Below are positions 3,635 through 59,647 of a stretch of DNA of 64,000 bases, one piece after another. Below the pieces are notes generated by a model. That model did not search any database, was not told the origin of the DNA, and saw only the letters and a program-made list of their open reading frames with translations. The position numbers were made by a program, and so were the translations under genes. Each line of letters starts with the position of its first letter. Position 1 is the first letter of the stretch. Source of the stretch: Escherichia coli (GTDB lineage Bacteria; Pseudomonadota; Gammaproteobacteria; Enterobacterales; Enterobacteriaceae); assembly GCF_024502345.1 (NCBI RefSeq), contig NZ_JALDNN010000001.1. The stretch is one strand, 5' to 3'.

Positions 3635-4476
3635 TTGAGAACCGTCCGTGGCTGACGATATTCAGCCATACCATGCTGATCCTCGGGATCGCGGTGATCC
3701 TCTTCCCGCTGTACGTGGCGTTTGTCGCGGCGACGCTGGATAAACAAGCCGTCTACGCCGCGCCGATGACGCTAATCCCCGGCACGCATCTGCTGGAAAA
3801 CATCCACAACATCTGGGTAAACGGGGTAGGCACAAATAGTGCGCCGTTCTGGCGGATGTTGCTTAACAGCTTCGTGATGGCGTTCAGCATTACGCTCGGC
3901 AAAATTACCGTCTCGATGCTCTCGGCATTCGCCATTGTCTGGTTTCGTTTTCCGCTGCGTAACCTCTTTTTCTGGATGATTTTTATCACCCTGATGTTGC
4001 CGGTTGAAGTACGTATCTTCCCGACGGTGGAAGTCATCGCCAACCTGAAGATGCTCGACAGCTACGCAGGTTTAACGCTGCCGCTGATGGCCTCGGCGAC
4101 CGCGACGTTTCTTTTCCGCCAGTTCTTTATGACCCTACCGGATGAACTGGTGGAAGCCGCGCGGATCGACGGCGCGTCGCCAATGCGCTTCTTTTGCGAC
4201 ATCGTTTTTCCGTTGTCCAAAACTAATCTGGCGGCGCTGTTTGTGATCACCTTTATTTACGGCTGGAACCAGTATTTGTGGCCGTTGTTGATTATTACCG
4301 ACGTGGATCTCGGCACCACCGTGGCAGGGATCAAAGGGATGATCGCCACTGGCGAAGGCACCACGGAATGGAACTCAGTGATGGCGGCGATGTTGTTAAC
4401 CCTGATCCCACCAGTAGTGATTGTTTTAGTGATGCAGCGTGCCTTCGTGCGCGGCCTGGTCGATAGTGAGAAATAA
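3631..4476 (+). CDS. ugpE: sn-glycerol-3-phosphate ABC transporter permease
   Basis: 281-aa membrane ORF; ATGA overlap with the ugpA stop (3631-3634). Confidence 0.95.
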
Positions 4477-11822: not shown

Positions 11823-11860
11823 GTTGGACAAGTGCGAATGAGAATGATTATTATTGTCTC
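11823..11860 (+). promoter_or_regulatory. ryhB promoter with Fur box
   Basis: ttggacaagtgcgaatgagaatgattattattgtctc lies directly upstream of the RyhB +1; the gaatgagaatgattattatt segment resembles the Fur-box consensus gataatgataatcattatc. Confidence 0.6.
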
Positions 11861-11950
11861 GCGATCAGGAAGACCCTCGCGGAGAACCTGAAAGCACGAC
11901 ATTGCTCACATTGCTTCCAGTATTACTTAGCCAGCCGGGTGCTGGCTTTT
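11861..11950 (+). ncRNA. ryhB: RyhB small RNA (Fur-repressed, iron-sparing response)
   Basis: The 90 nt gcgatcaggaagaccctcgcggagaacctgaaagcacgacattgctcacattgcttccagtattacttagccagccgggtgctggctttt match RyhB as I recall it, ending in a Rho-independent terminator (gccagccgggtgctggc + T9). Lies between yhhY and yhhX as in K-12. Confidence 0.9.
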
Positions 11951-12071
11951 TTTTTGATCTTTCGTTCTCAATTTATCCACGGGAGTGCTTGTGTTCGTTA
12001 TGCGCACTCCAGTAGGAACCACGTCCGCTTTGCGCTAAGGTGTAAATAACCACCTTAAAAAGGACGAAATC

Positions 12072-54086: not shown

Positions 54087-54323
54087 TTAACGCAGCGCCC
54101 ACCACTCGCGCAGACAGGCTTTTCCTTCCGGGCAGCTTTTACAACTGCCGGAGAGGCAGCCGTCAGGTTCTTCCTGAATCCGCACGGCTTTGCCCATACT
54201 TTCCAGTTGTTGCAGCATGGCGTTAATCATTGGCTGTGGAGTGTTCAATGTCTTGCTTATCTGGGCCGCTTCCATACGGCCCCGTAACGCCAACAAATCA
54301 CGCACCTGAATAAGTGAAGCCAT
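54087..54323 (-). CDS. feoC: Ferrous iron transport protein C (putative [Fe-S]-dependent regulator)
   Basis: ORF track 54087..54332; start set at ATG 54323 ([13 protein letters not shown]...), 78 aa; Cys cluster [15 protein letters not shown]; start overlaps the feoB stop by 1 nt. Confidence 0.85.
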
Positions 54324-56644
54324 TAATGGCAATCACCGGTGGTGCTGGCTGCGCAGCAACTACTTACCGACTTGCGGGTTGCCAGCAGTTCGATATCCAC
54401 CCGGCTACGCGCGCGGCGCAGCAGACCGATAACCACGATGTTAAACAGGATAACCGCCAGAATGCACACCAGGCTGTAAGTTGGGTGCTGACTGTAGCTG
54501 GCGACCTGATAGAACAATGTTGCCAGTGAGTAAGCGATATTCAGCCCCCACAGGATGGAGAAGCCCATCCAGCCACGGCTTGATTCACGGGCGATGGCTC
54601 CCATCACCGAGATGCACGGTACATACAGCAGGACGAAAATCAGGTAGCTGTATGCGGCAGCTGCGCTACCGAATTTCTGATCCATCACGCCCATCGCCCC
54701 GGTACCCATTTCGCCGTCGCCTTTGCTAGCTTCAATGGGGTTCATCAGTACGCTAAGGCTGAAGGTGTCTTTCAGGCTCTGCCAGGTTTCATCTACCGCG
54801 CTGAACAACTCTTCACCGAGGTTAAATTCCGCCGGATTGAACTCTTCGTCCTGAATATTTTCTGCGGTGTAGAGGGTGTTGAGCGTACCCACCACCACTT
54901 CTTTCGCCATTGCACCCGTAAACAGGCCAACTGTTGCCTGCCAGTTATCTTCATGCACGCCAATCGGCTTGAAGACCGGGGTGATCACCCGGCTGACGGA
55001 AGCCAGCGCCGAGTCGTTGATGTTATCGACGATTTTCCCGCTCAACGAGAAGCTGTTGAAAGCGCTCAGGAAAATGCTGACGATGATAATCACTTTACCA
55101 GCACGCAGAACGAAGCCTTTCAGACGCTGCCAGGTCTGGATAATCAGGCTTTTAACGTGTGGTACATGGTAGACCGGCAGCTCCATGACAAACGGCGTCG
55201 CTTCACCGCGCATGATGGTGTACTTGAGCATCAGGCCAGTCAGCACCGCCATCACGATACCCAGCATATACAGCGAGAAGACCGCCAGCGCACCGTTCTG
55301 CCCGAAGAAGGCAGCCGCGAATACTGCGAAGATAGCCAGACGCGCGCCGCAGGACATAAACGGTGCCATCATGATGGTCATCAGACGTTCACGCGGTGCA
55401 TCAAGCGTACGTGCACCCATTACCGACGGTACGTTACAACCGAAACCGACGATCAGCGGCACAAAGGATTTCCCCGGCAAGCCCAGCGCCTGCATCAGGC
55501 GGTCCATCACAAACGCTGCACGCGCCATATAGCCGGAGTCCTCAAGGAAGGAGAGGAACAGGTACATCATGCCGATCTGCGGCACCAGTGGCAGCACGGT
55601 GTTAATACCGCCACCCAGGCCCTGGGCGAGGAAGATAGTCAGCCAGTCCGGGAAGTGGAGCGTGTAGCCAATCCATTGAATACCATGCACAAATAGCGCC
55701 ACGGAGCCGACGTCAAACAGCGGCTGTAACGCCCCGCCGATGTTGATAGCCAGCAGGAACATCAGGTACATCACAAAGAGGAAAATCGGCAGACCGAGGA
55801 AACGGTTGAGCACGATTTTATCTACCGCAGTGGTGAAACGGCTGGGTTCTGCCGTCAGGGTGTTGCTTACCACATCACAGATGGCCGCAATGCACTGGTA
55901 ACGCGCATCGGCAATGTGCAGCGCCGGATCGTCCATCTCATTACGCAGACGGGCGAGGGCGGCATCAAGATGCTGCGACGCTTCACCGGCGTAGGCGCGG
56001 CTGTAGATATCGCCTTCCAGCATTTGCAGGCCCAGCCAGCGACGTTGTTTCAGCGGGATGTCGGAAGGCATCACTTTTGCCAGTGAATCTGCTTCGTTGA
56101 GCAGCGGCTGTGCGTAATGCACCAGTTCCACATTCTCGTTAGCTTTATAGCGATCAATCGCCAGCTTGAGCGCTTCAATACCGCGACCACGGGTTGAAAC
56201 CAGCGGGATCACCGGACAGCCAAGACGCGCCGACAGAGCATCAATTTCAATACGAATATTTTGCTTCTCGGCAATGTCGAGCATGTTCAGTGCCACGATG
56301 CAGGGAATGCCGAGTTCCAGCAGTTGTAGCGTCAGGTACAGGTTACGCTCAAGGTTAGACGCATCCACCACGTTAATCAGCAGGTCGGCGTCGCCACTCA
56401 AAATGTAGTGACAGGCGATTTGCTCATCGAGCGAGGTCTGCGATGAGATGGTGGTCAGAGAATAGGTGCCGGGCAGGTCCACCAGCGTGACCTGATGATC
56501 GGTGGTGGAGAATTGCCCTTCTTTACGTTCGACGGTAACGCCAGCCCAGTTACCTACACGCTGACGTGCGCCAGTGAGCTGGTTAAATAAGGTTGTCTTG
56601 CCAGAATTTGGATTACCAATTAAGCCAATGGTTAATTTTTTCAT
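54323..56644 (-). CDS. feoB: Ferrous iron transporter B (GTPase + permease)
   Basis: ORF track 54323..56656; start set at ATG 56644 ([21 protein letters not shown]...), 773 aa; N-terminal G-domain P-loop. Confidence 0.95.
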
Positions 56645-56660
56645 TGTTGTTATCACCGTA

Positions 56661-56888
56661 TTAACAGGAAACCGCTTCCACTTCTAATAAGGCCAGATCT
56701 TTTTTGCGTAATACCAGGCTCACACGACGGGTTTCGATATGAATGGGGTCGCCGAGTGGAGCGACGCGCACCACATTAAAAGAGGAGCCAGGTAACATGC
56801 CTAGAGAAAGCAGTTTTTGGCGATATGCCGGGCTGATTTCACGGGAAAAGCCAGTGATTTTCCACGCAGTATCTGGAGTGTATTGCAT
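56661..56888 (-). CDS. feoA: Ferrous iron transport protein A
   Basis: 75-aa ORF directly upstream of feoB. Confidence 0.9.
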
Positions 56889-56998
56889 AGGTGCCTACTT
56901 GTTTCTCATTAACTGGATAACTACCTCATGGGGCGTTTGACAGCGACATGAGACCAGATGATTTGCCAACGAAGGAGAGATTAAATAATCAACAGTAC

Positions 56999-57092
56999 AA
57001 TGATAATGAGAATGGTTTCTATCAGCAATACTTAAAATGTGTGCGAATGTTGGTTTGAATAATAATCTGACTCAATGTTGATGTGGCTCAAG
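56999..57092 (-). promoter_or_regulatory. feoABC promoter region: candidate Fur box and FNR site
   Basis: aatgataatgagaatggtttctatc (56999-57023) is Fur-box-like; ttgatgtggctcaa (57078-57091) matches TTGAT-N4-ATCAA at 9 of 10 positions. Confidence 0.4.
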
Positions 57093-57325
57093 GTTATATC
57101 GCAGCGAAAATATAATTCGAATAGAGAATTACCAGGACTGGCTAATGTTTAATTAAGGTTTCAGTTGTTAATGAAGTGATAAATATTAACGAAATATATT
57201 GTGAGTTTGGCTGTGGAATAAATATGCCGGAGATATTCTCCGGCACTTTTATGTCAGGCAAGGCGTTCGTTGCCAGATGCGGCGTGAACGCCTTATCGCG
57301 CAGGTTTAGGGGCCAGTCCGGGCGT

Positions 57326-59647
57326 TTAACGTTTTTTGCCCATTGCTGCCGCCAGCGCGTCCATCATCGCGCTGTTACCGGCAGGCTGCGCTTCACGACC
57401 GCGTGGTTTGGCTGCCGGGCGGTTGTTTTGCGGGCGATCGTTACCGCCGCCGCGACGAGAGTTGGTTTCGCCAGGCTGCTCGTCCAGACGCATGGTCAGG
57501 GCGATACGTTTACGCTGAAGATCCACTTCCAGCACTTTCACCTTCACAATGTCGCCCGCTTTCACCACGGTATGCGGATCTTCTACAAACTTGTTCGACA
57601 ATGAAGAGATGTGAACCAGGCCGTCCTGATGCACGCCGATATCGACAAACGCGCCAAAGTTGGTGACGTTGGTCACCGCACCTTCGAGGATCATACCCGG
57701 TTGCAGGTCGTTCATTGTCTCGACGCCATCGGCAAACTGAGCGGTTTTAAATTCCGGACGCGGATCGCGACCCGGTTTTTCCAGCTCTTTGATGATGTCA
57801 GTTACTGTCGGCACACCGAATTTTTCATCAGTAAAGTCAGACGCTTTCAGGTTACGCAGTTCGCTGCTGTTACCCATCAGATCTTTCAGTGCCTGCTGTG
57901 TTGCTGCCAGAATGCGTTCCACCACCGGATAGGCTTCCGGGTGGACGGTAGACGCGTCCAGCGGGTTATCACCGTGGTTAATGCGCAGGAAGCCCGCGCA
58001 CTGCTCGAAGGCTTTCGGCCCCAGACGGCTGACTTTCAGCAGTTGCTGACGGTTCTTGAACTGGCCGTTCTCATCGCGCCAGGCCACGATGTTTTGCGCC
58101 ATCATGCGCGTCAGGCCCGCCACGCGGGTTAATAGCGGAACAGAAGCGGTGTTGAGATCGACGCCAACGGCGTTTACGCAGTCTTCTACTACTGCATCCA
58201 GTTTGCGGGCCAGTTGCGTCTGGCTGACGTCATGCTGATACTGACCTACGCCGATAGATTTCGGATCGATTTTCACCAGCTCCGCCAGCGGATCCTGCAA
58301 ACGGCGGGCGATAGATACCGCACCACGCAGCGAAACGTCGAGATCCGGGAACTCCTGCGCTGCCAGCTCGGAAGCTGAGTAAACCGACGCGCCAGCTTCG
58401 CTGACGATCACTTTCTGTGCGGTCACTTTCGGGAACTGCTTCTGCACGTCGAGATAGAAACGTTCAGTTTCGCGGGAAGCTGTACCGTTGCCGATCGCCA
58501 CCAGTTCAACGTTATGTTTTTCACACAAGGCAGCAACGGTCATCGCTGCTTTTGCGGCTTGTCCGGTGTGCGGGTAAATGGTATCGGTCGCCACCAGTTT
58601 GCCAGTGGCATCGACCACCGCCACTTTTACCCCGGTACGCAGACCCGGATCGAGGCCCATCGTTGCACGCAGTCCGGCAGGGGCCGCCATCAGCAGATCG
58701 TGCAGGTTACGGGCAAAGACGTTGATTGCTTCATCTTCCGCGCGTTCGCGCACGGTACCCATCAGTTCGGTTTCCAGATGCATCAGCACCTTGATGCGCC
58801 AGGTCCAGCTCACTACGCCTTTGCGCCAGCTATCCGCCGGGGCATTGTTCAGGCGCAGGCCAAGGTGATCCATGATGATTTGCTCGCAATAGCTCTCTTT
58901 GGGCGGCTCATCGAACTGCGGATCGGCATTCAGCGAAAGCTGGAGTACGCCTTCGTTACGCCCACGGAACATCGCCAGCGCGCGGTGAGAAGGCACCGTG
59001 GACAACGGTTCGTGATGATCGAAATAGTCGCGGAATTTCGCCCCTTCCTCTTCTTTACCGCTCACCACCGTAGAAACCAAATGCGCGTTCTTCCACAGAT
59101 AATCACGCACTTTCGCCAGCAGCGCGGCATCTTCGGCAAACCGTTCCATCAGGATATAGCGCGCGCCATCCAGCGCGGCTTTGGTATCTGCCACGCCTTT
59201 ATCGGCATCAACATATTGTGCAGCGGCGACTTCTGGCGTGTGTGACGGATCGCTCCACAGCAGGTCAGCCAACGGCTCAAGCCCTGCTTCAATGGCGATT
59301 TGCCCGCGGGTGCGGCGTTTAGGTTTGTAGGGCAGGTAGAGGTCTTCGAGTTCGGTTTTGCTTAGGGTGGCGTTGATGGCCTTCGCCAGATCATCGGTGA
59401 GTTTGCCTTGCTCGGAAATGGATTTGAGGATCGCCTGACGTCTCTCTTCCAGCTCGCGCAGATAGCTCAGACGCGTTTCCAGATTACGCAGCTGCGTGTC
59501 ATCCAGACCGCCGGTGATTTCCTTACGATAACGTGCGATAAACGGCACGGTATTCCCTTCGTCAAGCAGGCGAACGGCAGCGTCAACCTGTTCCGGGCGC
59601 GCCTGAATTTCACCCGCAATAATGCGGCAGAACGAATCATTCATCAT
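57326..59647 (-). CDS. yhgF: Tex-like transcription accessory protein with C-terminal S1 domain (YhgF)
   Basis: 773-aa ORF; YqgF/RuvC-like and HhH segments, C-terminal S1 domain and basic tail. Confidence 0.9.

Follow-up and report, generated by a model that had tools for sequence, protein, structure and literature searches.

The feoABC locus and its upstream spacer

The window analysed here, a single stretch of 64,000 nucleotides from Escherichia coli, carries the genes for ferrous-iron uptake on its minus strand: feoA (56661-56888), placed by its open reading frame and the K-12 annotation; feoB (54323-56644), an open reading frame with its start set by the K-12 annotation; and feoC (54087-54323), an open reading frame encoding a protein with one substitution relative to K-12 FeoC. 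The gene upstream of feoA is yhgF (57326-59647, also on the minus strand), and the spacer between the two occupies 56889-57325, which is the 437 bp that an earlier note on this DNA, made by reading the sequence alone, had given for it. That note had also proposed binding sites for Fur and FNR at 56999-57092. It is very probable that this flagged stretch is the control region of feoABC ferrous-iron uptake on an E. coli-type chromosome, where Fur represses and FNR activates transcription.

Of 5,426 complete E. coli genomes, 5,425 contain the yhgF-feoA spacer, with identities of 90-99.8%. A core of 106 bp has a match in 5,424 complete genomes of the species, in nearly all of them at an identity of 98% or more. 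The FeoA protein itself is 100% identical in the genomes of E. coli, E. albertii and E. whittamii. Between about 57130 and 56997, a stretch that takes in both sites and the whole flagged interval, the window is the same as K-12 MG1655 base for base, and the published K-12 maps therefore apply to it directly. The window departs from K-12 at two nucleotides (56995-56996), at a few single bases upstream of these, and by an indel of 19 nt beside the yhgF stop. Published coordinates were converted by taking U00096.2 as NC_000913.3 minus 1978, an offset fixed with two published sites, and the window position as 56888 + (3540163 minus the NC_000913.3 position).

The end of the spacer nearest yhgF has features of its own. 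A terminator-like hairpin (57225-57245) follows the gene, and a REP-like element (57265-57302) adjoins its stop, at the point where K-12 has 19 extra bases. The element scores 24.7 bits against naRNA4, below the gathering score, and an Rfam search of 56600-57400 returned sub-threshold matches only, over this same element.

Promoter, FNR site and Fur operator

A sigma-70 consensus scan of 56800-57400 called no promoter, because the -35 element fits the consensus at only three of six positions; the promoter was instead located from conservation and the published start. Park et al. (2013, PMC3798270) put an ArcA site at 3537888-3537908 (U00096.2), at -191 to -171 relative to the mapped start; the start implied by these coordinates is U00096.2 3538079, or window 56994. 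The hexamers predict 56993, and we therefore take the start to lie at approximately 56993-56994 (+/- 2 nt) on the minus strand. The putative -10 element, TATCAT (57000-57005, minus strand), matches TATAAT at five of six positions and lies 6-7 nt upstream of the implied start. The putative -35 element, TTGCTG (57023-57028, minus strand), lies 17 nt upstream of TATCAT and is conserved as TTG..G, with TTGATG or TTGAAG in other genera. We suggest that transcription would begin from a single sigma-70 promoter, with its -35 element at 57028-57023, a 17-nt spacer, its -10 element at 57005-57000 and its start near 56994.

The leader from the predicted start to feoA is about 105 nt long, and its RNA has an ordinary free energy (z = 0.18). 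Folds of the leaders of the individual species gave a mean z of -0.6, and RNAalifold, run on the feoA leaders, found no consensus structure. About halfway along the leader, at 56929-56957, is a hairpin, CUCAUG...CAUGAG; in other genera the equivalent place is taken by hairpins with other stems (for example CAUGCGC/GCGCAUG, UUCAUACG/CGUGUGAA), and the leaders of Enterobacter, Lelliottia and Leclercia lack about 70 nt that include it. Many genera conserve the 14 bases at the very start of the transcript, which read GTTGATTATTTAAT on the feo strand (56980-56993).

The FNR binding site is TTGATGTGGCTCAA (TTGAGCCACATCAA on the feo strand), at 57078-57091 with its centre at 57084.5, and it was identified by consensus, by matrix and by published ChIP-seq. 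It agrees with the inverted repeat TTGAT-N4-ATCAA at nine of ten positions. Matches with one mismatch to the FNR consensus TTGATNNNNATCAA number 6 in the 64-kb window against 2.5 expected, which is unremarkable. We also scored the window with a symmetrised FNR matrix made from 62 sites at the ChIP-seq peaks of Myers et al. (2013), from which feoA had been excluded. The feo site scores 15.6 bits, which ranks first among the 63,987 positions of the window and equals the median of the 62 ChIP-bound sites. Matches as good as this occur about 0.27 times per simulated 64 kb, and about 0.002 times per 437-bp spacer. The second-best match to the matrix in the window is ATGATTTTTATCAC (3976-3989, 12.1 bits).

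The same site has been mapped in K-12. Myers et al. (2013, PMC3688515) predicted an FNR site, TTGAGCCACATCAA, at 3537982 (PatSer 14.6, Table S6) at a ChIP-seq peak, which their Table S5 places at 3537996 (U00096.2). Their site, 3537982-3537995, converts exactly to window 57078-57091, and the peak lies about 7 bp from the centre of the site. The near-consensus FNR pair that had been read upstream of feoA is thus the published site, with its end set 1 nt too far.

The Fur operator proximal to feoA, TACAAT-GATAAT-GAGAAT-GGTTTC-TATC, occupies 56993-57026 (56996-57026 for the array proper) and was defined as a hexamer array and by ChIP-exo. The repeat TACAAT-GATAAT-GAGAAT lies at 56996-57013, beginning 3 nt before the start given in the earlier note. 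The 19-mer Fur consensus GATAATGATAATCATTATC agrees at 13 of its 19 positions in each of two registers, 56996-57014 and 57002-57020, which are offset by 6 nt, and such a match, taken alone, has a P of about 0.18 in AT-rich DNA of the same composition and is not significant. Since the 19-mer count is too weak alone, we replaced it by a test of the hexamer array, in which the feo array matches (GATAAT)x3 at 15 of 18 positions, the best in the 64-kb window (P = 0.0016 for a 437-bp sequence of like composition). As a positive control, the top 19-mer Fur match in the window is GACAATAATAATCATTCTC (16 of 19, 11840-11858), just upstream of RyhB, and we take 11834-11858 to be the known operator of the Fur-repressed ryhB promoter. 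The RyhB sRNA (Rfam RF00057, 83 bits) lies at 11890-11954 on the plus strand, between yhhX and yhhY.

Binding of Fur to the proximal array is also on record. In the MG1655 Fur ChIP-exo table of Gao et al. (2023, PMC10164565), the feoA peak P104 (3538047-3538080) is listed only for iron-replete conditions, and it converts to window 56993-57026, about -33 to +1 relative to the start. The AT-rich, Fur-box-like repeat of the earlier note is both the best (GATAAT)x3 array of the window and part of a published footprint. Kammler and co-workers (1993) annotated two Fur boxes upstream of feoA, according to the account of that work given by Chen et al. (2007, PMC2189734), who themselves predicted Fur sites by information theory at 3538006 (10.5 bits), 3538059 (10.9 bits) and 3538065 (13.4 bits). 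These convert to about 57067, 57014 and 57008 in the window. Chen et al. (2007) also stated that the feo promoter was, at that date, without any Fur footprint.

The distal Fur-like box, TTGAATAATAATCTGACTC (57055-57073), rests on the 1993 annotation as cited by Chen et al. and on their 10.5-bit site at about 57067. It is weak, with 11 of 19 matches to the 19-mer, and it is poorly conserved, with conservation confined to an ATT core. The MG1655 Fur ChIP-exo table lists no separate peak for this box, its sole feoA peak lying over the proximal array. At the other end of the operator, the 6-nt phase of the hexamer array is continued by AATAAT at 56984-56989, and judging from this phasing the Fur operator may reach downstream of the start site.

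Taken together, the motif scans place the FNR site first by matrix and the Fur array first by hexamer test (P = 0.0016), and the published FNR and Fur sites all fall within or at the edge of 56999-57092, coinciding with the flagged sites rather than lying elsewhere in the 437-bp spacer. As a matter of calibration, a reading of the raw sequence without tools had put both sites right to within 3 nt. The Fur and FNR sites of feoABC are real but ordinary, having already been published for E. coli K-12. Publications from 1993 onwards cover the sites, their regulators and the physiology, and the genome-wide binding maps agree with them, so the sites are worth little as a discovery.

Conservation across Enterobacteriaceae

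One genome per species was scanned with FeoA, giving 80 Enterobacteriaceae loci. In 78 of the 80 species, the best match to the FNR matrix within 512 bp upstream of feoA is an orthologous site of the form TTG(A/C)(G/T)-N4-(A/G)TCAA. Columns were aligned for 79 distinct sequences, namely the window and the 78 loci with an orthologous FNR site. The half-site columns are about 90-100% conserved, and the central four nucleotides and the flanking columns mostly 10-60%. Conserved half-sites with a free spacer and free flanks are the pattern expected of a site for a dimeric factor.

The promoter is conserved even more closely. A 31-bp block, ATTGCTGATAGAAACCATTCTCATTATCATT (57029-56999), which holds the -35 element, the Fur array and the -10 element, is almost invariant in the 79 sequences, and the -10 element is conserved as TATCAT, TACCAT or TATTAT in 79 of the 81 sequences made up of the window and all 80 species. 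Over the 49 nt that separate the FNR site from the -35 element, the mean identity is 62%, against 93% for the promoter and Fur block.

The distance between the FNR site and the promoter is held nearly constant across this drifting stretch. In the window, the centre of the FNR site (57084.5) lies about 90.5-91.5 upstream of the predicted start; among the 81 sequences, the distance from centre to predicted start is 91.5 in 56, 90.5 in 22 and 81.5 in one. The feoA leader varies from 32 to 234 nt across species, while the distance from FNR site to start stays fixed. The single short spacing belongs to Enterobacter sp. kpr-6 (L060), where, in the region some 90-180 nt upstream of feoA, the FNR site is exactly 10 bp, or one helical turn, nearer the promoter.

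Some lineages depart from the common arrangement. Cedecea davisae and C. neteri (L069, L079) are without the orthologous FNR site; they carry FNR palindromes of perfect consensus (TTGATCTAAATCAA, TTGATTTAAATCAA) 370-380 nt upstream of feoA, which is about 250-260 nt upstream of the conserved Fur and promoter core. In 13 species of Kluyvera, Klebsiella pneumoniae, Raoultella, Yokenella and Silvania (loci L027, L029-L031, L034, L037, L038, L052, L053, L056, L066, L071 and L077), the left half-site has degraded to TTGCG and the site scores at most 10.5 bits. The degraded half-site suggests that FNR control may be weaker or lost in these species, with the position kept.

Regulation of feoABC and the position of the FNR site

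The earlier note expected iron and anaerobic control of feo from these sites, and the literature bears it out through Fur repression, FNR activation and occupancy in vivo. FNR is reported to activate feoABC and Fur-Fe2+ to repress feoAB, and in iron-replete medium Fur repression masks the activation of feoABC by FNR. A feoA-lacZ fusion was reported to be repressed by Fur only anaerobically, in a study that describes activation by ArcA and FNR as known. In glucose minimal medium, Myers et al. (2013, PMC3688515) saw no FNR-dependent change in feoABC.

Two further regulators have been placed in the spacer. Upstream of the FNR site, an ArcA site overlaps a sequence shifted by OmpR, ttATCAtttcattAACA (57165-57185); it differs from K-12 at one base, with C in the window for T in K-12. 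Park et al. (2013, PMC3798270; Tables S3, S4 and S6) found feoABC to be activated by ArcA, and Gerken et al. (2020, PMC7315122) showed by EMSA that OmpR shifts a fragment carrying the ArcA-site sequence. An adjoining block, AAACCTTAATTAAACATTAG (57161-57142), to which the feo studies cited here assign no binding protein, shows strong conservation across Escherichia, Klebsiella and Raoultella. The OmpR/RstA-like box CCAACATTCGCACACA (57038-57053, minus strand), which is situated between the FNR site and the -35 element, was predicted by Gerken et al. (2020, PMC7315122), in whose work a short fragment with this box was not shifted by OmpR. Across genera the box is partly conserved as ACATTC..CACATTTTA.

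The positions of the sites suggest how they might work. In the predicted TTGCTG-17-TATCAT promoter, the Fur array takes up the 17-nt spacer and lies over the -10 element, so Fe2+-Fur bound there would block RNA polymerase. An operator lying over the spacer and the -10 element is the classical occlusion arrangement. Occupancy of the array (56996-57026) by Fe2+-Fur is published, and its position is what points to occlusion. Under the same scheme, an FNR dimer on TTGAG-N4-ATCAA (57078-57091) would raise transcription when oxygen is absent, and it may do so jointly with ArcA, OmpR or RstA bound nearby. Overall, feoABC is expressed in the absence of oxygen unless iron is in excess. One qualification applies to the FNR site, which is not at the usual class II position, lying about 91 bp upstream of the start. 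Both the binding of FNR here and the dependence of feoABC on FNR are published; that FNR activates from about -91 is our inference, and such a position would be atypical. Myers et al. (2013, PMC3688515) found the site at -41.5 +/- 4 in 19 of 23 FNR-activated promoters and at -60.5 in one, and they remark that very few FNR-activated promoters are known with a site at -61.5 or beyond.

We suggest, at slightly less than an even chance, that FNR is a natural far-upstream activator of feoABC, acting from about -91 at a distance that most Enterobacteriaceae hold to within 1 bp or one helical turn as the intervening sequence drifts. In the alignments, the fixed spacing between FNR site and promoter argues for a face-of-helix constraint, which could come from contact with the alpha C-terminal domain or from cooperation with a neighbour, either at the ArcA/OmpR sequence (57165-57185) or at the element at 57038-57053. 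If this is true, feoA could serve as a rare natural model, either of class I activation by FNR over a long distance or of joint action by FNR and ArcA, OmpR or RstA. Curated databases may already record this geometry.

Other readings of the two sites have to be weighed against this. That both motifs are functionless chance matches in AT-rich intergenic DNA is next to impossible: the number of one-mismatch FNR matches (6 for 2.5 expected) and the P of about 0.18 for the 13/19 Fur match would allow it, but the first-ranking matrix and hexamer-array scores, the published occupancy in vivo by both proteins at exactly these positions, and the deep conservation that both elements and their spacing show speak against it, and the ChIP data and conservation refute it. 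It is also very unlikely that a second promoter lies upstream and uses the FNR site as a class II site at -41.5, with a start at about 57043 and the distal Fur box as its operator. Class II is by far the commonest geometry of FNR activation, a Fur-like box does lie just downstream of the FNR site, two promoters have been proposed for feoABC of Yersinia pestis in published work, and a TATTAT hexamer is present at 57064-57059. However, that hexamer would put the FNR centre near -32, a non-activating position, and where a -10 element is needed there is no such hexamer, 57055-57050 reading AAACCA and being poorly conserved. The stretch from the FNR site to the -35 element is only 62% conserved, the distance held constant is that to the downstream promoter, and the sole listed Fur ChIP-exo peak is over the proximal array. 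A class II reading of the FNR site was accordingly rejected, its centre lying 90.5-91.5 from the start, with no usable -10 element 30-35 nt downstream and a poorly conserved stretch there.

Rather unlikely, though less so than a second promoter, is an indirect role, in which FNR at about -91 helps or antagonises another protein without touching RNA polymerase; candidates would be ArcA or OmpR at 57165-57185, an RstA/OmpR-like box at 57038-57053, or nucleoid proteins. In favour of such a role, feoABC is activated by ArcA, whose site is at 57165-57185, OmpR shifts a fragment with the same sequence, and a partly conserved ACATTC..CACATTTTA stands between the FNR site and the -35 element. Moreover, Myers et al. 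(2013, PMC3688515) put feoA among the operons at which FNR binding alone gave no change in expression. On the other side, OmpR failed to bind the short fragment that carries the 57038-57053 box, and direct contact with the alpha C-terminal domain remains compatible with the observations. A strict distance, with one variant of a whole turn, is what direct contact on one face of the helix predicts, although cooperative binding fits it too.

The closest known system is the K-12 feoABC promoter itself, known from the work of Kammler, Schon and Hantke (1993) and from later genome-wide studies: after conversion of coordinates it has the same FNR, Fur and ArcA sites, and the window differs from it only outside the Fur and FNR sites, at 56995-56996, at the one base in the ArcA site and in the indel at the yhgF stop. 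Like classical Fur-repressed promoters such as ryhB, the feo promoter has a GATAAT-type array that overlaps the core promoter, and its occupancy is iron-dependent in published data. The feo array is weaker than that of ryhB (13/19 against 16/19), and, unlike at the classical promoters, Fur repression of feoA is reported only anaerobically.

With regard to FNR, the feo palindrome is of the same kind as those of the class II promoters nirB, narG and dmsA and has a comparable matrix score. In contrast to their sites at -41.5, the feo site lies at about -91, which rules out the typical contacts with sigma and the alpha N-terminal domain. It shares with class I FNR promoters, the synthetic FF-61.5 and FF-71.5 and the natural ydjXYZ (-60.5), a position upstream of the -35 element, from which only the alpha C-terminal domain could be reached, and it differs from them in its distance from the start, which exceeds the published -61.5 and -71.5 by one to three helical turns. 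The position of -91.5, which equals -61.5 minus 30, and its strict conservation, with one species shifted by exactly 10 bp, would be compatible with class I, for which the definitions consulted name only -61.5 and -71.5. Reportedly, in work by Wing, Williams and Busby dating from 1995, synthetic promoters were also activated with the FNR site near -82 and -92. Activation from those two positions would match the 81.5 and 91.5 spacings found at feo.
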